Shown: in pieces, positions 12,468-30,907 of the stretch
How the letters are laid out: every line of letters starts with the position of its first letter
Numbering within the stretch: position 1 is the first letter of the stretch
Origin: Candidatus Methylomirabilis limnetica
Lineage (GTDB): Bacteria > Methylomirabilota > Methylomirabilia > Methylomirabilales > Methylomirabilaceae
Assembly: GCF_003044035.1 (NCBI RefSeq)
Contig: NZ_NVQC01000011.1
Span: 29,714 to 61,713 of the forward strand
Direction: 5' to 3'
Length of the DNA stretch: 32,000 bases
The notes under the pieces: model-generated
The model's input: only the letters and a program-made list of their open reading frames with translations
What the model was told of the DNA's origin: nothing
The model's database searches: none
Translations under genes and position numbers: made by a program

Positions 12468-14375
12468 ATGGCACTCGTTTCGCTCGATCACGTCTCCATC
12501 GCGTTCGGACACGTCCCGCTACTCGACGACGCAAGTCTGCAGGTCGAAGCCGGCGAACGTGTGTGCGTGATCGGCCGGAACGGCACCGGCAAATCCACAT
12601 TGCTCCAGATCCTCAGTGGAGATCAGACCCCCGATAGCGGCTCCGTGTGGCGACAGCCTGACATTGGGGTCGCGCGGCTCGTGCAGGATGTTCCCCTGGC
12701 GTCCAACCGGCCCGTCTTCGACGTCGTCGCGGAAGGGCTCGGCAACCTCGGCGAGTTGGTGGCCGCCTACCATCACGCGGCGGTAGAGGTGGCCGAACGA
12801 TGCACCGACATCTCGCTCGAAAAGCTGGGCACGCTGCAGCATGAACTCGAAAAGCGTGACGGGTGGCGCCTTGAGCAGCGAGTGGAAACCGTGATCGAGC
12901 GTCTGGACCTCTCGGCCAATGCCATCGTCGACACCTTGTCAGGCGGCTGGCGGCGGCGCGTACTGCTGGCACGGGCGCTGGTGGCCCAGCCGCAGCTCCT
13001 TCTGCTCGACGAACCCACGAACCATCTCGACATCGAAGCCATGAGCTGGCTCGAAGAATTTCTCAAGACGTACGCAGGTGCGGTGGTGTTTGTTACCCAC
13101 GACCGGGTATTTCTCCAGAATCTGGCAACACGGATCGTAGAAATGGATCGCGGCAAATTGACGTCGTGGCCAGGCGACTACGAGACCTTTCTCCACAAGA
13201 AGGAGGAATGGCTCGCGAACGAAGCCGTCCAGAACGATAAGTTCGACAAGCGTCTGGCTGAGGAAGAGGTGTGGCTTCGCCAGGGCGTGAAGGCGCGACG
13301 TACGCGGAATGAAGGGCGGGTTCGCGCACTGGAGGCCATGCGAAAGGAGCGGGCCGCCCGGCGAGCGCTGATCGGCAATGTGCGTCTGCAGGGTGAGATC
13401 GGCGAACGTTCCGGCCAGCTCGTGTTCGAGGCCACCGGTATCTCGAAGTCGTTCGGCGAAAAGGCCGTCGTCCGAGATTTGTCGTTACGTGTGATGCGCG
13501 GCGATCGTGTGGGGTTGATCGGGCCGAATGGATCAGGCAAGACGACCCTGCTTCGAATGTTGATTGGCGAACTTACGCCCGACACGGGTGAAGTTGAGTG
13601 CGGCACTAACGTCCAGGTGGCGTATTACGATCAGCAACGCGAGCAACTCGATCCCAAGCGCACGGTGTTTGACACGGTCGGTGATGGAAACGACACGGTC
13701 ACGGTGAACGGTCGCACGCAGCACATCCACGGATATCTTCGCGATTTTCTGTTTCCACCTGAGCGAGCGTACGCCAAGGTAAAGGCATTGTCGGGCGGAG
13801 AGCGAAATCGCTTGCTGTTGGCACGCCTGTTCACGCGACCCGCCAACGTCCTTATCCTCGATGAGCCCACAAACGATCTCGACATCGAGACATTGGAATT
13901 GCTCGAATCGCATCTCATCGAGTGGCCGGGAACGCTGCTGCTCGTCAGCCACGATCGCGCGTTTATCGATCACGTCGTCACGAGCACGCTCGTCTTCGAA
14001 AGCGGCGGACATGTGCAGGAGTATGTCGGGGGATACGAGGACTGGCTGCGGCAGCGCGGCACCCGGGAGACGGCGGCCGAGCCGCAGCCGGCGATAGCGG
14101 AACGCACTGCGGAACCACTGGTGACGATGGCGACCCGGAAGAAACCGACGTATCGCGAGCAAAAGGAACTCGATCAGTTGCCGGTGCAGATCGAAGCCCT
14201 GGAACGGGAGCAAGCGCAATTGACCGCCTCGATCGCCGACCCCCACTTTTACCGTCAGCCGGCCGATTCCATCACAGAAGCGCTCGCGCGTCTCGAAATT
14301 CTGAAAAATGAGCTTCACGACACCTATGCTCGCTGGGAGAAGCTTGATTCCCGTATCACAGGCGAGCGCGCGTGA
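12468..14375 (+). CDS. uup: ABC-F family ATPase, Uup-like
   Basis: 635 aa with no TMD. Two NBDs (Walker A GRNGTGKST / GPNGSGKTT; signatures LSGGWRRR / LSGGERNR), an inter-domain linker and a C-terminal coiled-coil extension. Confidence 0.85.
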   Translation: MALVSLDHVSIAFGHVPLLDDASLQVEAGERVCVIGRNGTGKSTLLQILSGDQTPDSGSVWRQPDIGVARLVQDVPLASNRPVFDVVAEGLGNLGELVAAYHHAAVEVAERCTDISLEKLGTLQHELEKRDGWRLEQRVETVIERLDLSANAIVDTLSGGWRRRVLLARALVAQPQLLLLDEPTNHLDIEAMSWLEEFLKTYAGAVVFVTHDRVFLQNLATRIVEMDRGKLTSWPGDYETFLHKKEEWLANEAVQNDKFDKRLAEEEVWLRQGVKARRTRNEGRVRALEAMRKERAARRALIGNVRLQGEIGERSGQLVFEATGISKSFGEKAVVRDLSLRVMRGDRVGLIGPNGSGKTTLLRMLIGELTPDTGEVECGTNVQVAYYDQQREQLDPKRTVFDTVGDGNDTVTVNGRTQHIHGYLRDFLFPPERAYAKVKALSGGERNRLLLARLFTRPANVLILDEPTNDLDIETLELLESHLIEWPGTLLLVSHDRAFIDHVVTSTLVFESGGHVQEYVGGYEDWLRQRGTRETAAEPQPAIAERTAEPLVTMATRKKPTYREQKELDQLPVQIEALEREQAQLTASIADPHFYRQPADSITEALARLEILKNELHDTYARWEKLDSRITGERA

Positions 14376-20706: not shown

Positions 20707-20920
20707 ATCGGTAAGATCAACACGGTTATTGGAGAAGCACAACCATTGAGCATACTGACCGACATACCACCATCCAAACCTTTGACGGATGCGGCGATTC
20801 TCCTGTCTTTTAATGAGCTTGTCAAGTCCGCACGGCACCGATTGTTAAGGTGGACCCCAAAACAGCGATAGAAAGTTGTCATTGCGAACGAAGTGAAGCA
20901 ATCTCCCATTGTTGCACCGA

Positions 20921-20962
20921 CACAACAGACGCAATGACGCGATCGACGCCATAGACGCAATG
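20921..20962 (+). repeat. ACGC-core tandem array R1 (4 cores)
   Basis: cacaacagACGCaatgACGCgatcgACGCcatagACGCaatgg. Immediately followed by TGGTAGAAT. Confidence 0.85.
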
Positions 20963-20971
20963 GTAGAATAC

Positions 20972-21001
20972 TTGCTTCCTGCGGTGATTCCACGCTATAA
21001 T
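20972..21001 (+). promoter_or_regulatory. candidate sigma70-type promoter of the Fic cassette
   Basis: TTGCTT-18 nt-TATAAT. The -10 is bracketed by the inverted repeat CCTGCGG/CCGCAGG. AGGAG lies 9 nt before ATG 21022. Confidence 0.4.
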
Positions 21002-21021
21002 CTCCGCAGGAGCTGCGTAGA

Positions 21022-22125
21022 ATGTATATCCATGAGCGTAAGGACTGGCCCCGGTTTAACTGGAACCGCGAGCTGTTCGCTGAGCCTCTCGCCGACGTTC
21101 GCCACCGACAGGGTCGGCTGATCGGCCACATGGAAGCCCTCGGATTCAATCTCCGCCAGGAGGCCGTCTTGCAAACCCTCACGTCCGATGTTCTCAAGAG
21201 CAGTGACATCGAGGGCGAGAAGCTGGATGCTGAACAGGTCCGGTCCTCGATTGCGCGCCGCCTCGGTCTGGATATCGGCGCCTCCAAGCCCGCAGACCGC
21301 AATGTCGAGGGCATCGTTGAAATGATGCTCGACGCCACGCGCCATTATGACCAGCCACTCAGCGCCGAAAGGCTCTTTGCGTGGCATGCGTCCCTGTTTC
21401 CCACCGGGCGCACCGGCATGACCAAAATCAGGGCAGGGGCCTGGCGTGACGACAGCACCGGTCCGATGGAGGTCGTCTCTGGCCCGGTTGGGAAGGAGCA
21501 CGTCTATTATCAAGCGCTCCCGGCACCACGGGTCGATGGGGAGATGCGTGCGTTCCTGGAGTGGTTCAATGCCAACGCCGACAGTGATCCGGTCTTGAAA
21601 GCTGGACTGGCCCACCTCTGGTTCGTCACCATCCACCCGTTTGATGACGGCAACGGCCGCATTGCGCGCGCCATCGCCGACATGGCCCTGGCGCGCTCAG
21701 AAAATAGTCCGCAGCGCTTTTACAGCATGTCAGCGCAAATCCGGCAGGAGCGTAACGCGTATTACGACATTCTTGAAGAGACGCATAAGGGGACGATGAA
21801 CATCACGCCCTGGATGGAATGGTTCCTCGGCTGTCTGGGCCGCGCCATCGATGGTTCACAAACCACTCTGGCCGCAGTCCTCGCCAAGGCGCGCGTCTGG
21901 GACGCGCTAGCCGGTGTTGCGATCAACGACCGGCAACGCCTTGTGCTCAACCGTCTCCTTGATGGCTTCGAGGGTAAGCTCACGACATCGAAATATGCGA
22001 AGCTCGCCAAGTGTTCCCAGGACACCGCCCTCCGTGACATTCTGCCGCTCGTCGAGCGCGGTATCCTTGTCCGCAACCCGAAAGGCGGGCGGAGCACGAG
22101 CTATGCGCTCGCTCCGCTACGATAG
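21022..22125 (+). CDS. Fic family protein (DUF4172 N-terminal domain, Fic core, C-terminal winged-helix)
   Basis: 367 aa. Fic active-site motif HPFDDGNGRIAR (HPFx[D/E]GNGRxxR). An N-terminal inhibitory-helix-like motif SSDIEG ([S/T]xxxE[G/N]) lies upstream of the core. Confidence 0.9.
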   Translation: MYIHERKDWPRFNWNRELFAEPLADVRHRQGRLIGHMEALGFNLRQEAVLQTLTSDVLKSSDIEGEKLDAEQVRSSIARRLGLDIGASKPADRNVEGIVEMMLDATRHYDQPLSAERLFAWHASLFPTGRTGMTKIRAGAWRDDSTGPMEVVSGPVGKEHVYYQALPAPRVDGEMRAFLEWFNANADSDPVLKAGLAHLWFVTIHPFDDGNGRIARAIADMALARSENSPQRFYSMSAQIRQERNAYYDILEETHKGTMNITPWMEWFLGCLGRAIDGSQTTLAAVLAKARVWDALAGVAINDRQRLVLNRLLDGFEGKLTTSKYAKLAKCSQDTALRDILPLVERGILVRNPKGGRSTSYALAPLR

Positions 22126-22156
22126 AGCGATGCGTGCAACCGACCATCTTGGGTCT

Positions 22157-22281
22157 ATTCCGTCTTTTTCGTCACTGACCACCCGACCAAATAGACTAGA
22201 TAGACCAAGCAGACGCAATCAGCGCCGTACGCCGCACGCTGCACGCAACAGACTCAATGACGCAACAGACGCGATAGACGC
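22157..22281 (+). repeat. ACGC-core tandem array R2 with leader box (7 exact cores plus degenerate units)
   Basis: Leader ATTCCGTCTTTTTCGTCACTGACC (22157-22180), then degenerate units (ACCA/ACTA), then cagACGCaatcagcgccgtACGCcgcACGCtgcACGCaacagactcaatgACGCaacagACGCgatagACGC. Confidence 0.85.
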
Positions 22282-22323
22282 ATGAAAGTTGTCATTCTCG
22301 CCGGTGGTGTCGGTACCCGCATC
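22282..22323 (+). pseudogene. N-terminal relic of a sugar-phosphate nucleotidyltransferase
   Basis: ATG directly abuts array R2. MKVVILAGGVGTRI equals the canonical N-terminal G-loop of RmlA/RfbF-type enzymes. After codon 14 the ORF loses all resemblance to the family. Confidence 0.35.
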
Positions 22324-22368
22324 TTCATGCCTGGGAGGGATAGCGCCATATACCTGTTCCCCCATTTC

Positions 22369-22397
22369 TTGACATTTATATCCATAGGGCTCACAAT
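22369..22397 (+). promoter_or_regulatory. candidate promoter of the RHH-MazF cassette
   Basis: Consensus -35 TTGACA, a 17-nt spacer, then CACAAT. AGAGG lies 7 nt before ATG 22431. Confidence 0.4.
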
Positions 22398-22430
22398 CTT
22401 ACCAAACGTCATACTTAATAGAGGTCTCCT

Positions 22431-22712
22431 ATGCCTACCGTTACAGATCGGTCTCCAAAATCCAAGATCACGGTCACGCTGAGTCCGGACGTAGTCCGTC
22501 AACTGGATGCCCTCCTTGACCTCCCGGGGAACCGCTCCCGAAGCCTCCTGGTTGAAGAGGCCATTCGCCGGTGGCTTCAGGAGCACGCTCAGAAGCAGAT
22601 TGAACGCCAGGTTGAGGATTATTACCTTTCCCTCTCCAAGGCCGAGCGCAAAGAAAATGAAGCGTGGTCCAAAACCTCCGCTCGCGCGGCCAAATACATC
22701 TGGGATAAATAG
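22431..22712 (+). CDS. ribbon-helix-helix (CopG-like) type II antitoxin
   Basis: 93 aa. A KITVTLSPDVVRQLDALL beta-strand/helix start, immediately upstream of a MazF/PemK toxin gene. Confidence 0.75.
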   Translation: MPTVTDRSPKSKITVTLSPDVVRQLDALLDLPGNRSRSLLVEEAIRRWLQEHAQKQIERQVEDYYLSLSKAERKENEAWSKTSARAAKYIWDK

Positions 22713-22717
22713 CCACC

Positions 22718-23065
22718 ATGCCATATCCTGGCCGAGGCGAGATTTACATGGTCAAACTCCCATGGCATCCTTCCGACACTAAAAATCGGCCCGCTCTTGT
22801 TGTGTCAATGGACGTTCGCAATCGGCTGGCCAGCGATGTCATTGTGGTGCCTGTAACCTCGACCCTTCGGCCCGCGCCCACCCATGTCGAACTGCCTGCC
22901 GGAGAGGGAGGCCTCAAGCAAACCTCCATGGCCAAGTGCGAGCAGATCACCACGCTGGATAAATCGTTTCTCCTTCGCGGCCCCTTTGCCGGAACGGTGC
23001 GCCCATCGCTCATGCTTGAAATCGAAAAAGCTATCCAACGGGCCATCGGCATTCCGATCGTTTAA
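22718..23065 (+). CDS. mazF: type II toxin, MazF/PemK family endoribonuclease
   Basis: 115 aa. RGEIYMVKL......K.RPALVVS.D..N....DVIVVPVTS...P..THVEL, then ..KCEQITTLDK. Confidence 0.85.
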   Translation: MPYPGRGEIYMVKLPWHPSDTKNRPALVVSMDVRNRLASDVIVVPVTSTLRPAPTHVELPAGEGGLKQTSMAKCEQITTLDKSFLLRGPFAGTVRPSLMLEIEKAIQRAIGIPIV

Positions 23066-23122
23066 ATAGCGTGTGGCACGCCTTCCCCCGTAGCATCACG
23101 CTTCGCGTACCTCCGCACCCCC

Positions 23123-23148
23123 CAGACGCAATCGACGCGATGACGCAA
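23123..23148 (+). repeat. ACGC-core tandem array R3 (3 cores)
   Basis: cagACGCaatcgACGCgatgACGCaag. Confidence 0.7.
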
Positions 23149-23290
23149 GCCGTGCGGTGATGGCGGCCTGATCAATGGCGGGTTCTTAGTACTCTCCCCG
23201 CGCGATGCCGCGCATCCGCTGCTCGATGGTGATTTTCGTGGGACCGAAACGTGAAACCCGCCGATAGCCCTGAAAGTCTTCTTGCTTTGG

Positions 23291-23311
23291 TTATACCAGT
23301 ACAGGTATAAT
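23291..23311 (+). promoter_or_regulatory. operator palindrome overlapping a consensus -10 (HigBA-like cassette)
   Basis: TTATACC-agtaca-GGTATAA is a perfect 7-bp inverted repeat. TATAAT at 23306-23311 lies 6 nt before ATG 23318. Confidence 0.5.
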
Positions 23312-23317
23312 AAGCAC

Positions 23318-23528
23318 ATGCCATTCCTAAGAAAAACCGATCGAATGGGTGGGGAGCAGCAAAAAGGATTTGATGGCGCTTCCTGCCGACGTGCGGAAGT
23401 TCTTCGGCCATGCCCTGGACTTCGCACAGCGCGGCGATCAGCATGACGCGGCGAAGGTGCTCAAAGGTTTCGGCGGTACCGGCGTACTTGAGGTGGCCGA
23501 AAACGCTTGCAAAGGAGCGACGAAATGA
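23318..23528 (+). pseudogene. HigB-like toxin relic (RelE superfamily, phage Gp49/DUF891 type), frameshifted and C-terminally truncated
   Basis: Frame from 23337: PIEWVGSSKKDLMALPADVRKFFGHALDFAQRGDQHDAAKVLKGFGGTGVLEVAEN, then ACKGATK*. This matches the N-terminal half of this toxin family. The ATG (23318) is in another frame and is joined by removing one A of the A5 run at 23332-23336. The C-terminal half of the family is absent. The stop overlaps the antitoxin start (ATGA). Confidence 0.65.
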
Positions 23529-23860
23529 AAAAAAGGCTCATTAATGGTATCGAGGCGGAAAGCAGCTCCGGCAATGTGTTTGCTGACCTGGGCCTGCCGA
23601 ATGCCGACAAGCTCAAGATCAAGTCCGGCTTGGTGATCAAAATCACCCAGGCCGTGCGCAAGCTGGGCTTGACTCAAGAAGAAGCCGCCCGTCGCATGGG
23701 GATCACCCAGCCGAAAGTGTCCGGCATGATGCGCGGCGACTTTTCCAACTTATCCGAGCGCAAGCTGATGGACTGCCTGAACCGGCTTGGCTACGACATC
23801 GAAATCAAGGTGAAGCCGGCTGCGGAGCCGGTCGGCCACCTCGTGCTGGCTGTCGCTTGA
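23525..23860 (+). CDS. XRE-family HTH antitoxin (HigA-like partner of Gp49-type toxins)
   Basis: 111 aa from ATG 23525 (AAGGAG 8 nt upstream). SSGNVFADLGL...LTQEEAARRMGITQPKVSGMMRG.F..LSERKLMDCLNRLGYDIEIKVKP. Confidence 0.85.
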   Translation: MKKRLINGIEAESSSGNVFADLGLPNADKLKIKSGLVIKITQAVRKLGLTQEEAARRMGITQPKVSGMMRGDFSNLSERKLMDCLNRLGYDIEIKVKPAAEPVGHLVLAVA

Positions 23861-23962
23861 CCGGATTCAGGAAGCACCTCGCCCCGCTGCGTCACCGCCC
23901 GCAGTCATTGGCAATCGCCGTCGGCTGACTTACGTACTTGTTACATTTGTCCTTGTTGTCAG

Positions 23963-23991
23963 GTCTTTCTCGTCACAGACCAAACAGACGT
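23963..23991 (+). repeat. vestigial array: leader-like box plus two degenerate units
   Basis: GTCTTTCTCGTCACAGACC matches the R2 leader at 17/19 positions. It is followed by aaacagACGT. Confidence 0.5.
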
Positions 23992-24147
23992 TTGAGCGGT
24001 TGGTTGACGCGGAGCTAGCGGGCAGCGTCTTCGCAATGATGGATGCTAAGGTCCACCACGGGTTAGCCCGATCCATTTGTTCAGATGCCGGACAACTTAT
24101 TAACGCTCTCAAAATACTAACTTTACGTGATCGAAGAACCCTTCTGA

Positions 24148-24194
24148 CCTCCCTTTGCCAAAGGGAGGATTTACCCCTCTTTGGAAAAGAGGGG
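24148..24194. repeat. pair of GC palindromes (CCTCCCTTTGcCAAAGGGAGG; CCCCTCTTtggaaAAGAGGGG)
   Basis: Same style as 18197-18240. They lie in a 0.55-kb stretch with no convincing coding potential. Confidence 0.6.
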
Positions 24195-24461
24195 CGAGGG
24201 GAGATTTTAAGATTGCTGTCCAAATCCGGTCTTTCAAAAATCCTATGTTGGACAAGTATGATTGGGATGTGTTATTGCGAGTGTTACGCTGAGATTGTCG
24301 CGCACCCTTCGGGTACTCGCAATGACGTACACATGAACGGATTGGGCCGTCAATGCCTATTTGTGGGGTGGATGAGGTGCTGGCGGTTGGGGGGCGTGAT
24401 AAGCTGAAGAGAAATGTTCAGCTTCAAGGGACGAGTTACGAAGTCGTCATGGGGTAGAAAC

Positions 24462-24518
24462 CACTTGCAACGCAACTCGGCGCAGCTAATTGGCAATATC
24501 GTCACTGAGGTGAGATAC
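24462..24518 (+). pseudogene. 57-nt relic of an ABC-exporter membrane domain
   Basis: HLQRNSAQLIGNIVTEVRY versus HLPRNSAQLIRNIIAEVGM of the ORF at 27914-27970. About 45/57 nt are identical by hand alignment. Confidence 0.5.
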
Positions 24519-24654
24519 TAGACTTTCTCCGGGATCATCCTTGGCGTGTTGCTGTTCACTGAACCCTCGACTCGGTGACGCTATAGACACCACCCCTCGT
24601 TTGGCCTAAAGTGTTGGCACCAGTGGGGCACGCTGCGGGAGACCTGAAACCGGC

Positions 24655-25004
24655 ATGGTAGGCCACATGGACCAAGTAGTGCGGACATTTGCAACGGAGT
24701 TGAGAGGGGCTGGGGCCTCGTGTGCGGCAGATCCTGCTCTTTGGCTCCAGGGCCGAGGGGACGCTGGGGAAGGGTCTGATGATGACATGCTGGTGGTCAT
24801 CGATCAGCGCACGCCCGAGCCGTACTGGACGTTGAGCGGGGGCTCATGGATCGCTATGGGGTCTTGGTATCGACGATCCTTCGCAGCGAGGAGGAATGGC
24901 AACACAGTCAGGCTTTCGCCTTGGCTCGTAATATCATACGGGAAGGCGTACCTTGTGAAGGACGAGCTCGACCAACCAGACGCAATAACACAATAACGCC
25001 ATAG
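24655..25004 (+). pseudogene. nucleotidyltransferase (MNT-type antitoxin-like) with at least three frameshifts
   Basis: Family-like segments lie in three frames: MDQVVRTFATELRG (frame of 24655), GPRVRQILLFGSRA (24713-24754), RGDAGEGSDDDMLVVIDQRTPE (from 24754) and VLDVERGLMDRYGVLVSTILRSEEEWQHSQAFALARNIIREGV (from 24822). Confidence 0.65.
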
Positions 25005-25044
25005 ACGCAATAAACGCTATGAACGCAATGAACGCCATAGACCG
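24977..25044 (+). repeat. ACGC-core tandem array R4 (6 cores)
   Basis: cagACGCaataacacaataACGCcatagACGCaataaACGCtatgaACGCaatgaACGCcatagaccgg. Contains the first codons of the next CDS. Confidence 0.85.
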
Positions 25045-25432
25045 GACACTCAAGCAGGCTCTCCTGGCTGCTATCTGCATTCAGCCGGGTATCGGGCTGG
25101 TCATTATGTTCGGTTCGCTGGTGGCCGGCAAGGGGCGTATGGAAAGCGATCTGGACCTGGCGGTAGACGCGGGGCGCCGCCTGACGGCCAGCGAGAAAAT
25201 AGCGCTGATCTCCGAGTTGGCGAGAAGAACCGGCCGGCCGATTGACCTGGTGGATATCCACACCGTTGGCGAGCCTCTTCTGGGGCAGATTCTTCGGCAC
25301 GGAAAAAGGTTGCTGGGCAGCGATACGCACTACGCCAACCTGATCCGCAGGCACCTCTTCGATCAAGCGGACTACCTGCCGTACCGCAACAGAATCCTCG
25401 CTGAAAGGAGGCAGGCATGGATCGGGAGGTGA
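25019..25432 (+). CDS. mntA: nucleotidyltransferase antitoxin MntA (MNT domain)
   Basis: 137 aa. The FGSLVAGKGRMESDLDLAV motif (GS-x-G...D-x-D) and a 16-nt overlap with the downstream HEPN gene. The start (ATG 25019 or 25028) lies inside array R4 with no SD, so it is uncertain. Confidence 0.8.
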   Translation: MNAMNAIDRTLKQALLAAICIQPGIGLVIMFGSLVAGKGRMESDLDLAVDAGRRLTASEKIALISELARRTGRPIDLVDIHTVGEPLLGQILRHGKRLLGSDTHYANLIRRHLFDQADYLPYRNRILAERRQAWIGR

Positions 25433-25833
25433 TCGAGCACAAGCTCGAATCCCTGCGCCGATGTCTTCAGCGCGTCGCGGACAAATGCCCGCCCAACCCA
25501 GAAATGTTGGAGCGAGACCCCGATCTTCAAGATATTATCGCGCTCAACCTGACCCGTGCCGTGCAATTGTGCGTGGACATCGCCGCGCACCTTATTGCCG
25601 GCATGGAAGTGCCACCACCGGATACGATGGGCCAAACCTTCGATGCCTTGGCCAAGGCTGGCGTGATCCATGAGAACCTGGCAATGCAACTGAAGCAAGC
25701 AGTGGGCTTTCGTAATGTCGCCGTGCACAACTACGAGGAAATCAACTGGACTATTGTCCACACCATTGCCCGCCATCACCTTGGCAATTTCACAGAATTC
25801 GCTAGGGTTATTGTCTCCAGATTGGCAAGATGA
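25417..25833 (+). CDS. hepT: HEPN-domain toxin HepT (DUF86)
   Basis: 138 aa. The R-x4-H motif is in GFRNVAVHNY, and the helical DUF86 pattern is present. Confidence 0.85.
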   Translation: MDREVIEHKLESLRRCLQRVADKCPPNPEMLERDPDLQDIIALNLTRAVQLCVDIAAHLIAGMEVPPPDTMGQTFDALAKAGVIHENLAMQLKQAVGFRNVAVHNYEEINWTIVHTIARHHLGNFTEFARVIVSRLAR

Positions 25834-25835
25834 CC

Positions 25836-25956
25836 ATTCCGTCTATCTCGGCACAGCCCAAACCAACGCAATCAACGCGATGACGCAACAGACGCAATAA
25901 ACGCCATAGACGTAATGACGCAATAACGCAATGACGCAATCAACGCTATAGACGCC
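25836..25956 (+). repeat. ACGC-core tandem array R5 with leader box (10 cores)
   Basis: Leader ATTCCGTCTATCTCGGCACAGCCC (19/24 match to the R2 leader), then ccaACGCaatcaACGCgatgACGCaacagACGCaataaACGCcatagacgtaatgACGCaataACGCaatgACGCaatcaACGCtatagACGCc. Confidence 0.9.
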
Positions 25957-25973
25957 TTCCAGCCTTCAACTTC

Positions 25974-26378
25974 CTAAGAATGGTGCAAGTCGTCCAGGAA
26001 ACCAGCGAGCGTGAGTATGCGGATCTCTTCATGGCAGACGAGCGAAAGAAGATGGCGGTCACCGGAGACGATGATTTTGGCCTCAGCCAGCAGGGCACAT
26101 TCGAGAATCCGATTGTCCGGCTCATCCGTGAGAATATGAAGGTGAGGCTGGGTCTTCAGGACCGTAGCCGTCTTGCTGATGGACGTGAGGAGTTGCTCGA
26201 CCTTCTCATCCGTCCAGTCGAATTTAGTTCGGAGGATGTTGGCGGTTTCGGTGAGAATGAAGAAAGAAGTGAAGAGGACGAATCTTCCCCGCACGGCATG
26301 CAGATAGGCCTCTTCCGCATTGCCGCCAGGAATGGCAAAGGCCGAGATGAAGATATTCGTATCGAAGACGACCCGCAC
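25974..26378 (-). CDS. PIN-domain toxin (TIGR00305-like putative TA toxin)
   Basis: 134 aa. VVFDTNIFISA..., ...TDEPDNRILECA, IVSGDRHLL. The GTG start lies 2 nt after the upstream RHH stop. Confidence 0.85.
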   Translation of the reverse strand: MRVVFDTNIFISAFAIPGGNAEEAYLHAVRGRFVLFTSFFILTETANILRTKFDWTDEKVEQLLTSISKTATVLKTQPHLHILTDEPDNRILECALLAEAKIIVSGDRHLLSLVCHEEIRILTLAGFLDDLHHS

Positions 26379-26380
26379 GT

Positions 26381-26626
26381 TCAGCGACCCTGAAGGACCA
26401 GGGCTTCGACGTCAGCTTCGGTCAGGATACCTTTCTTTCTGGCCTGCCGGACGCCGTACCGCTGAAGCTCAAAGAACTCCAACTCCATGCGACGCTGCTC
26501 ATAGGCCTGGAACATATCGCGGAAAAGCTGACTCTTGTTCTTGGCCTCGGCTTTGGCTAATCCGCCGAACCGCCGCGCGAGGTCATGAGGAAGCGACACT
26601 GTTAAGGCTACCCGCTTGTGCTCCAC
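26381..26626 (-). CDS. ribbon-helix-helix (CopG-like) antitoxin
   Basis: 81 aa from GTG 26626 (AAGGAGG 8 nt upstream). RVALTVSLPHDLARRF beta-strand/helix start. The longer track ORF would begin inside the predicted -35. Confidence 0.75.
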   Translation of the reverse strand: MEHKRVALTVSLPHDLARRFGGLAKAEAKNKSQLFRDMFQAYEQRRMELEFFELQRYGVRQARKKGILTEADVEALVLQGR

Positions 26627-26654
26627 ATTACTACCCTCCTTTCTGTATGACAAA

Positions 26655-26683
26655 ATTATACCTGGCATCGCACTGACCGTCAA
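26655..26683 (-). promoter_or_regulatory. sigma70-type promoter of the RHH-PIN operon
   Basis: On the minus strand: TTGACG-17 nt-TATAAT. The 10-mer TCATACAGAA occurs between the -10 and the RBS (26641-26650) and again at 26754-26763, a possible operator pair. Confidence 0.6.
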
Positions 26684-26770
26684 TGCTGAGCATCGTGAGA
26701 GGGGAGTGAATCTTATAAGCTGTATTCATTCAGTGGACCGTGTCAACCCCATTTTCTGTATGAATCGGGA

Positions 26771-26910
26771 CACGACGACCGCCATCGACCCAACCGACGT
26801 AATCAACGCGATGATGCAACGACGTAATGAACGCTATAAACGCCGCACGCAATGACGCCATCAACGCCATAAACGCCGCACGCAATAAACGCCATCGACG
26901 CAACAGACGC
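26771..26910 (+). repeat. ACGC-core tandem array R6 (11 exact cores plus degenerate units; longest array)
   Basis: ...aatcaACGCgatgatgcaacgacgtaatgaACGCtataaACGCcgcACGCaatgACGCcatcaACGCcataaACGCcgcACGCaataaACGCcatcgACGCaacagACGC. Confidence 0.9.
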
Positions 26911-26911
26911 G

Positions 26912-26920
26912 TGGTATAGT
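26912..26920 (+). promoter_or_regulatory. extended -10 (TGGTATAGT) abutting array R6
   Basis: A TGnTATAGT element starts 2 nt after the last repeat unit, 40 nt upstream of the HicB ATG, with an AAGGAGGAAGGAA RBS region. Compare TGGTAGAAT right after R1. Confidence 0.4.
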
Positions 26921-26959
26921 CCTCATGGAAGATGGATAGAGTACTCAAGGAGGAAGGAA

Positions 26960-27190
26960 ATGGAACGGGTTGTGAGAATCCATATTGAGAAGCTGCCAGA
27001 GGGTGTGTACCTCGCCACCTCCGGCGCCGTACCAGGTCTGGTCGCTCAAGGGCGAACTGTTGCAGAAACATTGGAAATCGCCAGGGATGTTGCTCGAAGG
27101 CTACTGGAAGCCCGGGCCGAACGCCAGGAGGTGAACTCGCTTCAGCCAGCCGAAGAGGTTGTGGAATTCCCATTGGTCGTCAATATCTGA
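26960..27190 (+). CDS. hicB: HicB-family antitoxin (short form)
   Basis: 76 aa. IHIEKLPEGVYLATSGAVPGLVAQGRTVAETLEIARDVARRLLE is typical of the HicB N-terminal domain. Confidence 0.75.
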   Translation: MERVVRIHIEKLPEGVYLATSGAVPGLVAQGRTVAETLEIARDVARRLLEARAERQEVNSLQPAEEVVEFPLVVNI

Positions 27191-27193
27191 GCC

Positions 27194-27366
27194 ATGGGAC
27201 GGTTGGCTGGGTTTCGATATCGTGAGGTCATCAAGCGACTGCAAAGACTTGGGTTTGCATTCGCTACACGACGGTTCCCAATCACCCAGGGGACATACCG
27301 GTAGGAACACTGCGCGCAATCCTGAAACAAGCTGGGATTGATCCGGAAGACTTTCTCAACTCATGA
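27194..27366 (+). pseudogene. hicA: HicA toxin relic (internal deletion plus frame change)
   Basis: The N-terminal frame gives MGRLAGFRYREVIKRLQRLGFAF... and stops at 27302-27304. The C-terminal frame gives ..TTVPNHPGDIPVGTLRAILKQAGIDPEDFLNS*. The total is 173 nt (not a multiple of 3), and the segment that normally carries the conserved G-S-H is missing. Confidence 0.65.
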
Positions 27367-27445
27367 AGTTTCTTGACACTCCAATCTCTCACCATAAGCT
27401 TATCGCGTCTTGATCTTCCATGTGAGGCCGATTCGCGTTTCCGTC

Positions 27446-27530
27446 CGACCCAATCAACGCAATAAACGCCGCACGCCATCGACGCAATCGACGCAATGAC
27501 GCAACAGACGCAATGAACGCAACAACCGCC
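27446..27530 (+). repeat. ACGC-core tandem array R7 (8 cores)
   Basis: gacccaatcaACGCaataaACGCcgcACGCcatcgACGCaatcgACGCaatgACGCaacagACGCaatgaACGCaacaaccgcc. The last units supply ATG 27513. Confidence 0.9.
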
Positions 27531-28426
27531 CGGAAAATCTGGGACCTGCTCACCTCCGCCGAACGACGCAGTGCGGTGGTGTTGCTGGGCCTGATGTGCG
27601 TCGGCATGGTGCAGACGCAACAGACGCCATGACGCTACTCGGTGCGGGTCTGATGATCCCGGCGACTGCACTGCTCACACAGCGTGATGTTGCACGCACC
27701 TATCCGGCGCTTCACCCGGCCCTGCACGCCCTCGGCAACCCCAGCGAGCAGACCCTTGTCATCGGTGGCATGTTGGCGCTGGTTGGAGTATATCTCATCA
27801 AGACACTGTTGCTGGCTGTACTCGCCTGGCGGCAGACGCGTTTTGCCTTTGGTGTGCAGGCGCAACTGTCGCAGCGCCTATTCACCGTCTATCTGCGCCA
27901 GCCGTATACGTTTCACTTGCCACGCAACTCGGCGCAATTGATTCGAAATATCATCGCCGAGGTGGGCATGTTCACGTTCAGCGGAATCCATCCGGGCATC
28001 ACGTTGCTTGCTGAATCACTGGTATTGCTCGGCCTGTGCAGCCTGCTCCTCGCCGTCGAGCCGCTGGGTGCGCTCATTGTGGTGAGTGTGTTGGGTGCGG
28101 CCGCCTGGGGGTTCCATCGTCTCACCAGCGGGCGCATCGCGCGCTGGGGCAAGGCGGTGCGCCAGCATCATGACGGCGTGCGCCTTCAGCACCTGCAACA
28201 TGGCCTGGGCGGCGCCAAGGATGTGACACTGCTCGGAAGGGAAATCGACTTTCTCGACCAATACTGCGTGTACAATGCCCAGTCTGCCCGCGCCTGGCAG
28301 TTGCACACCACTCTGCAACAATTCCCGCGCTTGTGGCTGGAACTGCTTGCCGTCAGTGGCCTCGCCATACCGGTGATCAGCATGCTGGCGCGGGACCTGG
28401 CGGCGCGGCTACTTCTGGAGATCTAG
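27513..28426 (+). pseudogene. ABC exporter (type-1 transmembrane domain) gene, frameshifted by a repeat patch and lacking the ATPase domain
   Basis: MNATTARKIWDLLTSAERRSAVVLLGLMCVGMV (frame of 27513) continues as LLGAGLMIPATALL... and about 260 further aa of ABC-TMD-like sequence in the frame of 27596. There is no Walker A or signature motif before the stop at 28426, which abuts array R8. Confidence 0.7.
27610..27635 (+). repeat. ACGC-core patch R7b (3 cores) inside the ABC-exporter reading frame
   Basis: gcagACGCaacagACGCcatgACGCt. Removing 26 nt (or any length equal to 2 mod 3) rejoins the two halves of the frame. Confidence 0.75.
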
Positions 28427-28452
28427 CAGCGGAGTCGCAACGTCACGTCACC

Positions 28453-28510
28453 TAGACGCAACAGACGCAATAGACGCAACGAACGCCATCAACGCCGCAC
28501 GCAACGAACA
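28453..28510 (+). repeat. ACGC-core tandem array R8 (6 cores)
   Basis: tagACGCaacagACGCaatagACGCaacgaACGCcatcaACGCcgcACGCaacgaaca. Confidence 0.88.
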
Positions 28511-28527
28511 CTGGAGCGAATGAACTC

Positions 28528-28689
28528 ATGAAGGTGAGGTTGCACCCCCATGCGGTAGAGCGACTGCGAGAGAGGGTAACGACGGAGGAAGAAGTCAAGA
28601 GGGCCGTGGAACACGGTGAACGCTTTGCGGCAAAGCATGGACGAACGGGATTCCGACGAAACTTCCGAGGTTATACTGAAGTCCGTTGA
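28528..28689 (+). pseudogene. DUF4258-family (toxin-like) gene, N-terminal part, interrupted by an IS element
   Basis: MKVRLHPHAVERLRERVTTEEEVKRAVEHGERFAAKHGRTGFRRNF... matches the family pattern (..HA..R..eRgit.eev...fRrnF). The remainder is found at 30056-30199. Confidence 0.65.
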
Positions 28690-28697
28690 AATTTGAA

Positions 28698-30055
28698 GAG
28701 TGGCTCCCTCCGTGGAATACTCCACGGTAGCAATAACGAAAGGAGCCACAGATGAGAAGAGACACGAGGCAACGGAAGCACGCCATGGTTGGATTGAGGG
28801 CGATATCGGGGGAACAGCAGTTGTTGGGGGTCCTGACCCGTGTGATTCACTCGGGCAAGCAGGCGCTCGACGCGGTCATGCTGGAGATGGGACGCCTGGT
28901 CGCCGAGAGCGTCATGCTGATCGAGCGAGAGGAGCTCGCAGGACCCGGGCTCCTATCCGACGGACCCGAATCTCCAGAAGTGGGCGCACGAGGAGCGGTC
29001 GATCTTTATCGGCGACCAGAAGGTCAGGGTGCACCGCCCGCGACTCCGACATGTGGTTCGTGGGGAAGTGCCCATGCAGTCGTACGCACACCTGCACTCC
29101 CCAGGGCAGTTCTCCGAGGAGTTGTTGGAGAAAATCCTGCGAGGGGTCTCGGCGCGGAAATACGAGGAGACCGTCCTCGACGCGGCGCACGCATTCGGCG
29201 TGTCGCCGTCGTCAATCTCCCAGAAGATGGTGACGCTGACGGCCCAGAAACTGAAGGCGTTCCAAGAGCGGTCCCTGGCGGAGTTCACGCCGTTCGCGAT
29301 CTTCTTGGACACGATCCACCGGGGCGGCGAGGCATTTCTTGTCGCGCTGGGCGTGGACGTGAGCGGCCAGAAGATGGCCCTGGGATTTTGGCAGGGCTCC
29401 TTTCGAGAATCACGAGATCGGCGTCGCGCTGTTCAACGATCTGGAGCGCCGCGGTCTCTCGCTCTCCAAACGGATCCTGTTCGTGACCGACGGTGGCAGC
29501 GGCCTGCTCAAGGCGCTGCGGGAACGGTTCGGCAAGAAGCTGGTGCATCAACGCTGTGCGATTCATAAGAGCCGGAACCTCCAGCGACACTTGGCCAAGC
29601 GGTACCGCAAAGAGGCCCATCAGCGGCTCAAGACCGCGCTGGAGCAGACGCGCCACGCCGATGCCAGGCAGATGCTGCTGGAGCTGGAGGCGTGGCTGCG
29701 AGCCAAGAACGAGTCGGCGGCGGATTCGCTCCTGGAAGCCTTCGAGGAGTTGTTGACGCTGCATCGACTGAAGGTGCCGGCGCTGCTGCGCAAGACGCTG
29801 ATGTCAACCAACCCGATCGAGAGCATGTTCTCGCTGGTCCGGCACAGCGAGCGGAACATCAAACGCACACGAGGAAGCACGATGCTCCAGCGTTGGCTGG
29901 GGACGGTGTTGCTGTACTGCGAGAAGCAGCTCAAGCGCGTGAAAGGCTTTGCGGGTATTGCTCAGGTCGTCGCGACCATCGAGTACGAGCAAGCGGAGCA
30001 GCAGTCCGCTCTGACGAAGACGGCGGCGTGAGAAAACCATGGGAGCCGCTCAGAT
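28698..30055 (+). mobile_element. IS256-family insertion sequence (about 1.36 kb), transposase frameshifted
   Basis: Terminal inverted repeat GAGTGGCTCCC (28698-28708) versus GGGAGCCGCTC (30041-30051), 10/11 complementary. Flanked by AATTTGAA (28690-28697) and AATTTCAA (30056-30063) as a likely 8-bp target duplication. The exact ends are uncertain by a few nt. Confidence 0.7.
28752..30031 (+). pseudogene. IS256-family (Mutator-like) transposase with two frameshifts
   Basis: Three consecutive frames carry the family sequence: ...VMLIEREELAG | PGSYPTDPNLQKWAHEERSIFIGDQKVRVHRPRLR...ISQKMV...FLDTIHRGGEAFLVALGVDVSGQKMALGFWQGS | ENHEIGVALFNDLERRGL..ILFVTDGGSGL..QRCAIHKSRN...STNPIESMF. The shifts lie at the G-run 28947-28949 and the T-run 29401-29403. 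Confidence 0.8.
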
Positions 30056-30199
30056 AATTTCAACGAACTTATTGACAACCTCAAACTTCCGTATGGCGGC
30101 ATGTTGAATGATAAGATGTACTCAACAAAGCAAGTGGAAGCGTACGCCGTGGAGGAAGACGGATGGCTCGTCCTGACGGTCATCGTCAAGTTCTTCTAA
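30056..30199 (+). pseudogene. DUF4258-family gene, C-terminal part
   Basis: NFNELIDNLKLPYGGMLNDKMYSTKQVEAYAVEEDGWLVLTVIVKFF* matches the family C-terminus (..Y.tKQV....veE.....VvTVy..yf). Confidence 0.6.
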
Positions 30200-30212
30200 G
30201 ATCGGAGGAGAC

Positions 30213-30443
30213 ATGAAACTCAACTATGATCCGAAGCACAACATCGCGTACCTGAGAATTCACGAGAAGATCGAACAAGTCACGACGATCAAGCTCAGTG
30301 ATGAAATGAACATCGATATCGCTCCAGATGGAACAGTCTATGGCATTGAGTTCCTGAATGCCAATGAGCAACTGACCGAGGACCGGGGTGCTCTCGTCGT
30401 CGAGTTGGAGAGCAAGAGACACGAGATCAAGCTGGTGGCATGA
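30213..30443 (+). CDS. DUF2283 domain protein (usual partner of DUF4258)
   Basis: 76 aa. MKLNYDPKHNIAYLRI...IDIAPDGTVYGIEFLNA. GGAGGAG RBS. Confidence 0.8.
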   Translation: MKLNYDPKHNIAYLRIHEKIEQVTTIKLSDEMNIDIAPDGTVYGIEFLNANEQLTEDRGALVVELESKRHEIKLVA

Positions 30444-30859
30444 AGTTCGTCGAGACCCGCCGTAAAGGCACCTGCGTCATCGAGCTGGAATCCGTCGAAG
30501 ACGAACGCAGTCTACTGAGCGAAGAGCTTTTTGCGGAGGTTCAAAGAAATGTCGAAGCACTGGGGCAAGGGCATGGGCTTGACGTGGCCGTCACCGATCC
30601 CATCGTCCGCTCAACCGCCATTCAACTCCCCTTATCCCGCCATCGCGAACAAAACGGCCCTGATCATCTCAGGCCTGGCCCCTCCGCACGCCATAAACGC
30701 TGCACGCCGCACGCAATCGACGCCATCAACGCTATGGACGCAACAGACGCCATGAACGCAATAGTCTCGCTCGTCTCGCGAGTCCCGCAGCCCCCATCAA
30801 CGCCATCGACGCCGCACGCAATCAACGCGATGACGCAATCGACGCAACAGACGCAATGA
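30440..30859 (+). CDS. hypothetical ORF; only the first ~80 codons are non-repeat sequence, the rest reads through arrays R9/R10
   Basis: ATGA overlap with the DUF2283 stop. No family recognised. The C-terminal portion (..HAIDAINAMDATDAMNAI..) is simply the translated repeat, so the true product, if any, is unclear. Confidence 0.25.
   Translation: MKFVETRRKGTCVIELESVEDERSLLSEELFAEVQRNVEALGQGHGLDVAVTDPIVRSTAIQLPLSRHREQNGPDHLRPGPSARHKRCTPHAIDAINAMDATDAMNAIVSLVSRVPQPPSTPSTPHAINAMTQSTQQTQ
30685..30764 (+). repeat. ACGC-core tandem array R9 (9 cores)
   Basis: cgcACGCcataaACGCtgcACGCcgcACGCaatcgACGCcatcaACGCtatggACGCaacagACGCcatgaACGCaatag. Confidence 0.9.
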
Positions 30860-30907
30860 CGCCATGGACGCAATCGGCCGAACAGACCAAATAGATCAAA
30901 CAGACCC
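30795..30907 (+). repeat. ACGC-core tandem array R10 (10 cores plus degenerate tail)
   Basis: catcaACGCcatcgACGCcgcACGCaatcaACGCgatgACGCaatcgACGCaacagACGCaatgACGCcatggACGCaatcggccgaacagACCAaatagATCAaacagACCC. Confidence 0.9.

Follow-up and report, generated by a model that had tools for sequence, protein, structure and literature searches.

The stretch of DNA examined here (the window, 32,000 nucleotides (nt) of a contig of Candidatus Methylomirabilis limnetica) contains, at 27513-28426, the 5' part of a gene for a PglK-type ABC exporter, whose reading frame is broken by a short patch of repeat units with an ACGC core. The gene begins in one array of the same repeat family (R7) and ends just before another (R8), and both arrays belong to an island of small toxin-antitoxin cassettes (Table 1). 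An earlier reading, made from the letters of the window alone (the sequence-only reading), had noticed this frame break and took it as direct evidence that the repeat can arise or insert de novo, rather than being an ancient intergenic satellite. Comparison with homologs, sister copies and other genomes confirmed the break itself, apart from the size of the insertion, and supported the interpretation in part.

Table 1. Coordinates of the exporter remnant, its patch and its island in the window, with the state of the patch site in sister copies and the arrays of other genomes
Feature	Location	Strand	Evidence or remark
Toxin-antitoxin cassette island	20929..30876	+	12 unit clusters separating small cassettes
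Second remnant, related ABC exporter, family residues 133-166	24462..24563	+	in-frame stop; E down to 1.6e-9 with P0006
Array R7	27451..27524	+	about 8 ACGC-core units of 7-9 nt; ATG 27513 and the first 3-4 codons of the remnant come from its last units
N-terminal coding part of the remnant (PglK-type ABC exporter), read in the frame of ATG 27513	27513..27611	+	native homology from ~27521 (T-ARKIWDLLTSAERRSAVVLLGLMCVGMV)
Patch, 26 nt between Val codon GTG and Leu codon CTC	27612..27637	+	relatives have 9 nt (CTGGAGACA, Leu-Glu-Thr)
TGA stop made by the patch in the upstream frame	27630..27632	+	open reading frame
Rest of the transmembrane domain, family residues ~41-293, shifted frame	27638..28402	+	homology to P0003
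Tail of ~52 nt without family homology, stop codon 28424-28426; marks the 3' truncation	28403..28455	+	alignments with sister copies
Array R8	28456..28509	+	6 units (start given as 28454-28456)
IS256-family element (Transposase_mut)	28668..30082	+	imperfect terminal inverted repeats, 9-bp target duplication AAACTTCCG; not in orthologous locus L022
Native site CTGGAGACACTC	L022, L023, L060, L062, L066		no units
Native site, one-base variant TTGGAGACACTC	L055 copy 2		no units
Native site, one-base variant CTAGAGACACTC	L061 copy 2		no units
Patched site	window		3 units, +17 nt
Patched site	L061 copy 1, L063		3 units, +17 nt
Patched site	L056		4 units, +26 nt
Patched site	L055 copy 1		6 units, +44 nt
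Array at ispH/LytB	L006:1862-1896	-	
Array at an aldehyde dehydrogenase gene	L016:46-81		
Array at a MoxR ATPase gene	L021:3855-3899		
Array at an NtrC-type regulator gene	L010:5422-5456		
Arrays at a radical-SAM gene and purU	L008:3412-3537 and L008:5234-5339	- (first array)	

A truncated exporter remnant with a derived patch

The open reading frame (ORF) that starts at ATG 27513 on the plus strand (27513..27632, 39 aa, translation MNATTARKIWDLLTSAERRSAVVLLGLMCVGMVQTQQTP*) encodes a PglK-type exporter N-terminus, MNATTARKIWDLLTSAERRSAVVLLGLMCVGMV, which is 67% identical to residues 2-37 of the homolog P0003 (tblastn); it then runs into three ACGC-core units, reads them as QTQQTP and stops. 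Family sequence resumes in frame +2 at CTC GGT 27638 (LGAGLMIPATALLTQRD...) and continues for about 255 codons, with 71% identity to intact homologs from 27638 to 28393 (tblastn, P0003 residues 41-291, E 3e-104). The annotated ORF, 27629..28426 with ATG 27629, is the NCBI hypothetical protein CLG94_02440 of Ca. Methylomirabilis limnetica (P0001, 100% identity). The sequence-only reading had described this exporter start, the stop within a three-unit patch and the resumption in a different frame, and on all three points it agrees with the homologs. It was equally right that the first codons are R7 units and that the gene ends without an ATPase domain shortly before R8.

Family homology in the window begins at about 27521 and ends at about 28402. 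The repaired translation has 140 relatives, the best intact ones (65-79% identical) being half-transporters with ABC_membrane and ABC_tran domains, and P0003 aligns over its full length with PglK/WlaB (5c73, E 9e-63). Homology to the transmembrane domain (Type IV/ABCB, PF00664) covers the full length of the remnant, with a weak Pfam match (21.3 bits, under the cut-off of 28), and homologs extend more than 200 residues past the end of homology in the window, through the ATPase domain. A tblastn search with three full-length homologs found no nucleotide-binding domain of the exporter family (PF00005) in the window; the only matches to such a domain were in unrelated ABC-F genes at 12.5-15.6 kb. 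The possibility that the remnant duplicates the 635-aa ABC gene at 12468-14375 was rejected, as that gene encodes an ABC-F protein without similarity to it. The frame is broken by the 17 extra nt of the patch and by the TGA at 27630, and the native start region has been replaced by array units. The stretch 27513-28426 is a decaying, non-functional 5' remnant, the transmembrane half of an exporter only (about residues 5-293 of about 580).

Split at ACGC, the patch reads cag ACGCAACAG ACGCCATG ACGCTa, that is, three repeat units with cores at 27615, 27624 and 27632. When native GTGC-TGGAGAC-ACTCGGT is aligned with GTGC-AGACGCAACAGACGCCATGACGCT-ACTCGGT of the window, a block of 24 nt (27613-27636) stands in place of the 7 native nt TGGAGAC, a net gain of 17 nt and a +2 frameshift. 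The spacing GMV-LET-LGxGLxIP is identical in 27 of 27 homologs that carry both anchor motifs; a distant homolog (L004) reads gtg ctg gag acc ctc ggt at the site, and the closest copies (L022 and L023) read GTG CTGGAGACA CTC GGT. The units at 27612-27637 are absent from all 27 of these intact or partial homologs and from seven sister copies, and the residues they encode are no normal part of the protein. Since the window has 26 nt where its relatives have 9, the true excess is 17 nt. The sequence-only reading rejoined the two halves by deleting 26 nt. The frame is restored in this way only since 26, like 17, leaves a remainder of 2 on division by 3, and the deletion costs three native codons. 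Judged from these alignments, the patch is derived: repeat units have taken the place of what was once coding sequence. Even before that, the native GGAGACAC was similar to a unit of the form (C)AGACGC (CAGACGC).

Obviously, short repeats are error-prone in assembly, and one may ask whether the patch is an assembly or sequencing artefact at a low-complexity tract. However, three assemblies from different runs and assemblers (ENA ERZ4201064, Logan SRR24858483 and Logan SRR6684603) are 100% identical over 24179-30252, about 6 kb that include the patch, the identity of the three to the window spanning about 6 to 13.7 kb, and diverged copies from other samples carry homologous patches. With three independent assemblies identical, we give an artefact practically no credence.

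Two further observations concern the site itself. The first patch unit, GACGCA, can pair with its reverse complement, the native TGCGTC at 27597-27602 (Cys-Val codons), to give a 6-bp hairpin within 27596-27620. Such a hairpin was rejected as a requirement for patching: its fold lacks significance (z -1.48), and it is missing from patched copies that have GTCATC at this position. The array at 30741 was likewise dropped as the donor of the patch: the two share an 18-mer, ACGCAACAGACGCCATGA, for which about 0.5 chance matches are expected from unit frequencies.

Sister copies and the order of events

A metagenome scan and two contig look-ups yielded 11 sister copies of the remnant besides that of the window (12 in total), at 85-95% nucleotide identity, and all 11 are attached to arrays of the ACGC-core repeat. 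Counting the window, the patch site is native in seven of the 12 copies and patched in five. Thus, contrary to what the sequence-only reading implied, the event is not unique to this genome: four copies from other metagenomes are patched at exactly the same junctions, with three, three, four and six units.

The left junction of all patches is GTG-CAGACGC (GCG in L061 copy 1 and L063), and all five share the internal 8-mer ACGCxATG and the right junction ACGCT[A/T]CTC. The patch of the window is identical to that of L061 and L063 at 25 of 29 positions and the flanks are 88-93% identical, a similar divergence. Patched and native copies coexist: L055 and L061 have one of each on the same contig. 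On flank sequence the patched copies are not monophyletic, and the patch occurs in all four combinations with an unrelated insert of about 84 nt. This insert, which is GC-rich and partly palindromic (..ccctccccccaccgagggggagggcg..), lies between window positions 27914 and 27929 in L022 (437-522) and L055 (2981-3098), is absent from the window, and may be a small mobile element.

A tandem tract inside an ORF, with a copy number that varies between copies, could be seen as a phase-variable or programmed-frameshift switch of a functional protein. The tract, however, varies in 9-nt steps, and the gains (+17, +17, +17, +26 and +44 nt) are all 2 modulo 3, which leaves all five patched copies in the same wrong frame. 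Such steps are frame-neutral, so that the tract cannot toggle expression. Moreover, the gene has no ATPase domain, other copies contain stops and inserts, and the units are heterogeneous, unlike a homogeneous slippery tract. Neither on/off switching of the frame by tract length nor a gene able to make a functional product was found, and we regard a switch as extremely improbable.

The 3' truncation at about 28402, the 52-nt tail behind it and R8 occur alike in the window, in L022 (unpatched) and in L055 copy 1 (patched), and the 5' junction with R7 (ATGAACGCAACAACCGCCCGG) is identical in the window and L022. Since the truncation is shared with an unpatched copy, the ATPase half was lost earlier than, or independently of, the arrival of the patch, and this loss is at least as old as the split of the window, L022 and L055 copy 1. 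L022 and L055 copy 1 have lesions that the window is free of, namely the 84-nt insert in both and also a TAG in L022. The ratio dN/dS is 0.34 between the window and L055 copy 2 and 0.16-0.19 against intact homologs; constraint on the remnant is relaxed, yet not fully neutral.

These data bear directly on whether a fresh, genome-specific insertion knocked out a working exporter gene. The patch is indeed derived relative to all homologs, and the remaining frame (265 codons) has no further stop, as one would expect of such an event. However, patches with the same site and the same junctions occur in the four copies from other metagenomes, the truncation that removes the ATPase is also found in an unpatched copy (L022), and the remnant family is multi-copy (L055 and L061 each have two copies on one contig); a single misassembled strain is itself unlikely, given that the contigs differ by 7-15% at the nucleotide level. 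A fresh knock-out is therefore very unlikely in our view. What remains of the de novo claim is that derived units sit in former coding DNA; neither a fresh event nor a hit on a working gene is left, and the event is old, shared and length-variable, in an already truncated pseudogene.

An alternative to inheritance of one patch is that units were seeded recurrently and independently in different copies, at a hot spot provided by the unit-like GGAGACAC. Patched copies are scattered among native ones in the flank tree, the flanks of the window resemble those of native copies, and other junctions also lie at unit-like native sequence, as in L023. In contrast, the left and right junctions are identical, all five patches consist of 9-mers, then one 8-mer ACGCxATG, and end in ACGCT[A/T]CTC, patch divergence equals flank divergence, and patched and native paralogs on one contig have ample opportunity for conversion. 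We consider recurrent seeding unlikely, and rate it below a single origin followed by conversion.

Some sister copies are of interest in their own right. L023 is truncated at a different place from the window and has a different internal repeat patch (L023:607-645, ACGCAACCA ACGCAATCA ACTCTATGG ACTCAACCA), which starts exactly at a native ACGCAAC among the codons for HLQRNSAQL. This patch is flanked by two diverged copies of one ABC segment and links the remnant's 5' half with the sequence found at window 24468-24968. On a 67-kb metagenome contig (L055:5992-8787), a sister remnant with an open, transmembrane-only ORF of 335 codons ends one base before an intact ABC exporter of 595 aa, with a sugar epimerase next to it, which suggests that the remnant family lies at the edge of a polysaccharide gene cluster.

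The cassette island and the repeat family beyond it

Repeat units are 7-9 nt long, with an invariant ACGC core and 3-5 variable nt, and are heterogeneous within an array. The heptamer GACGCAA occurs 28 times in the window, always on the plus strand, against 6.0 +/- 2.3 expected from shuffles. All 12 unit clusters fall at 20.9-30.9 kb, all on the plus strand and none on the minus. Array lengths and ends differ between copies: the R7-gene junction is different in L023, L055 copy 2 and L056, shifting in unit-sized steps, and the L022 ortholog of R8 has the same 3' units and three more on its 5' side. The MNT gene of an MNT/HEPN pair (window 24980-25039 / 25019-25432) also starts inside an array (MNAMNAID...), so that the ABC remnant is not the sole ORF with repeat units as its first codons. 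A 12-mer, AAAGTTGTCATT, is found twice in the window (0.04 expected), at 20872-20883, about 45 nt upstream of array R1, where it continues ...GTCATTGCGAACGAAGTGAAGCAATC, and at 22285-22296, immediately after R2.

The cassettes encode Fic; RHH with PemK/MazF; a Gp49-like protein with HTH; MNT with HEPN; PIN with RHH (on the minus strand); a DUF1902/HicB-like ORF; the ABC remnant; a DUF4258-like ORF; and DUF2283. The small DUF4258-like ORF is split by the IS256-family element, whose transposase reads as two ORFs (28752-29486 and 29483-30031). Upstream of the island are aromatic amino-acid genes, GTPases and ABC-F genes, and the island is flanked by MFS, VanZ and housekeeping genes. A second ABC-exporter remnant, of 102 nt, occupies another cassette and is 82% identical at the nucleotide level to 27914-27964 over 51 nt. 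In L023 this piece comes immediately after the main remnant's 5' half, from which it follows that cassette order differs between strains; L066 joins the ABC 5' half at 27664 to the region of array R2. The breakpoints of such rearrangements lie at arrays or patches, and ABC fragments of differing extent are scattered between cassettes.

In the 32-kb window we found no recombinase or integrase besides the IS256 transposase (among the ten largest ORFs of 1-17.1 kb and the island genes), and no IntI or other tyrosine recombinase beside the island; the 437-aa ORF that adjoins the island is an MFS transporter. There was no Rfam 15 match at the gathering score anywhere in the window, no promoter or terminator consensus above chance around the arrays, and no common element in their upstream or downstream flanks. 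The arrays are direct repeats on one strand, without inverted-repeat structure, and fold worse than shuffled sequence (z +1.2 to +2.45; an equal or better fold is reached by 178-200 of 200 shuffles). The arrays are not attC sites, and no imperfect inverted repeats folding as single-strand hairpins were found in them. An integron was rejected on these grounds, that is, the MFS identity of the adjoining ORF and the absence of hairpin potential.

One may still suspect a dedicated system for exchanging cassettes, with a result like that of an integron, in which the arrays act as joints and the patch is a nascent or vestigial joint made by a putative enzyme, rather than a by-product of slippage or repair. 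Nearly every cassette is bounded by arrays, all on one strand; strains differ in the order of their cassettes, and the breakpoints fall at arrays or patches (L023 to window 24468, L066 at 27664 to the R2 region); ABC fragments of different extent occur among the cassettes; and conservation of the unit core from phylum to phylum suggests a trans-acting factor. Against this stand the lack of a recombinase, integrase or reverse transcriptase in the window other than the one IS256 transposase, the absence of inverted repeats from the poorly folding arrays, and the observation that in other phyla arrays precede ordinary housekeeping genes and not cassettes, while plain homologous recombination between direct repeats would yield the same patterns. 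A dedicated system thus seems to us improbable, if worth keeping in mind.

The repeat itself is not confined to Methylomirabilis limnetica. A 20-base diagnostic pattern, for which about 2 chance matches are estimated in 596 Gb, matched 16 contigs, from Nitrospirae, a Syntrophales metagenome-assembled genome (4), Armatimonadetes (2), Stahlbacteria (GC 0.38), Limnocylindrales, another Methylomirabilota and two actinobacterial records. Clusters of at least four ACGC cores are present at 13 of the 16 loci, several arrays can be found per contig in these genomes, and nonamers such as ACGCAACAG and ACGCAATAG form arrays in distant phyla (L006-L021). There the arrays lie 8-35 nt upstream of housekeeping genes, on the same strand. 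No match of the pattern was obtained among 2.9 million viral contigs, for which reason a phage origin was rejected. A literature search by unit sequence and keywords found no published description of ACGC-core repeats. Judged by this distribution and by the patch, this is an old and broadly distributed family that can also take hold at new sites; the contrast that the sequence-only reading drew with an ancient satellite is therefore a false one, the same units being present in Nitrospirae, Syntrophales, Armatimonadetes, Stahlbacteria and other Methylomirabilota.

In its broadest form, the idea of a trans-acting factor would make the ACGC arrays, placed from a few to some dozens of bases upstream of start codons, a cross-phylum functional element read by such a putative factor. 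In Methylomirabilis they would serve, whether natively or by co-option, as joints of an integrase-less shuffling of cassettes, plantable inside genes at unit-like sequence, with the patch at 27612-27637 and the L023 patch as new joints. We hold this doubtful, though not fanciful.

Origin of the patch and comparison with known systems

Taken together, the locus is probably a dead exporter remnant in a toxin-antitoxin cassette island, and its patch an inherited micro-array, which replaced native codons by conversion, varies in length and has spread between copies by conversion. The unit-like native GGAGACAC would have been converted from a true array, by short-homology template switching or gene conversion. 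Most economically, the patch would have arisen once; the tract may then have grown or shrunk by 9 nt at a time, through slippage or unequal exchange, and the patch may have spread among paralogous copies through gene conversion. The comparisons show that the gene is a pseudogene, that the patch is derived, that patches of 3-6 units sit at this site in other copies, and that patched and native copies coexist. The molecular route (microhomology seeding, slippage, conversion) we infer from the junctions: the L023 patch, the steps at R7 and the units of R8 fit a short-homology exchange between an array and unit-like sequence, followed by slippage, although they are no proof of it.

Several points weigh against this interpretation. 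The event is no clean insertion or duplication, having to be described either as a loss of 3 nt with a gain of 20 or as a replacement of 7 nt by 24, and the junction microhomologies are only 1-2 nt, which makes the route a tentative one. As recombination blurs the phylogeny of the flanks, one origin is not rigorously separable from repeated seeding at a hot spot. In addition, a dN/dS of 0.34, below 1, implies either that inactivation came late compared with the divergence of the copies or that some copies are still selected; L055 copy 2, with its open, transmembrane-only ORF of 335 codons, could still be under selection.

Taken alone, the patch is an ordinary pseudogene lesion and changes nothing for the physiology of the organism. 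As a dated marker, it indicates that repeat units can take over unit-like native sequence, that the resulting tracts breathe in 9-nt steps, and that they move between paralogs, which has a bearing on the construction and reshuffling of the toxin-antitoxin cassette island in Methylomirabilis. The repeat family is of more interest than the patch, since its core is the same even in distant phyla, its place just upstream of genes is consistent, it forms cassette joints here, and its function is directly testable.

As for the gene, the closest intact relatives of the remnant align over their full length with PglK, a member of the PglK/WlaB half-transporters (ABC subfamily B flippases of lipid-linked oligosaccharides, PDB 5c73). 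Unlike these, the remnant is a pseudogene consisting of the transmembrane half only, frameshifted, truncated and with its 5' end replaced by repeat units. As for the patch, templated insertions, and template switching mediated by quasi-palindromes or microhomology, are known in bacterial mutagenesis. The patch resembles templated insertions in being a replacement-type indel at a site that was partly similar beforehand, with new sequence that matches canonical array units elsewhere; it differs from those described in that no donor is identifiable and we infer the route. Simple-sequence contingency loci, such as the pentamer repeats of Neisseria opa, undergo phase variation by slipped-strand events. 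Here too a tandem tract inside a gene causes a frameshift and differs in unit number from copy to copy, but the steps of 9 nt are frame-neutral, every patched allele is out of frame, and the truncated pseudogene has no product to switch.

Sedentary chromosomal integrons combine IntI with arrays of attC cassettes. Like them, the island has small cassettes in one direction, many of them toxin-antitoxin pairs, with a recurring repeat between them, a position beside core genes and a content that varies between strains. Unlike them, it has no intI or tyrosine recombinase in the window, its joints are direct tandem units without attC-type inverted repeats, and its cassettes include gene fragments. 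The nearest parallel to the repeat itself may be the STRR (short tandemly repeated repetitive) sequences, heptamers reportedly found in heterocystous cyanobacteria. Both have very short tandem units at many, mostly intergenic loci, with a strand bias (here 12 clusters in 10 kb, all on the plus strand). The ACGC-core family, in contrast, has heterogeneous units of 7-9 nt with an invariant core and a variable spacer, and its hosts are not cyanobacteria but several phyla (NC10, Nitrospirae, Syntrophales, Armatimonadetes and others), where its arrays lie 8-35 nt upstream of start codons and, in the island described here, bound toxin-antitoxin cassettes.

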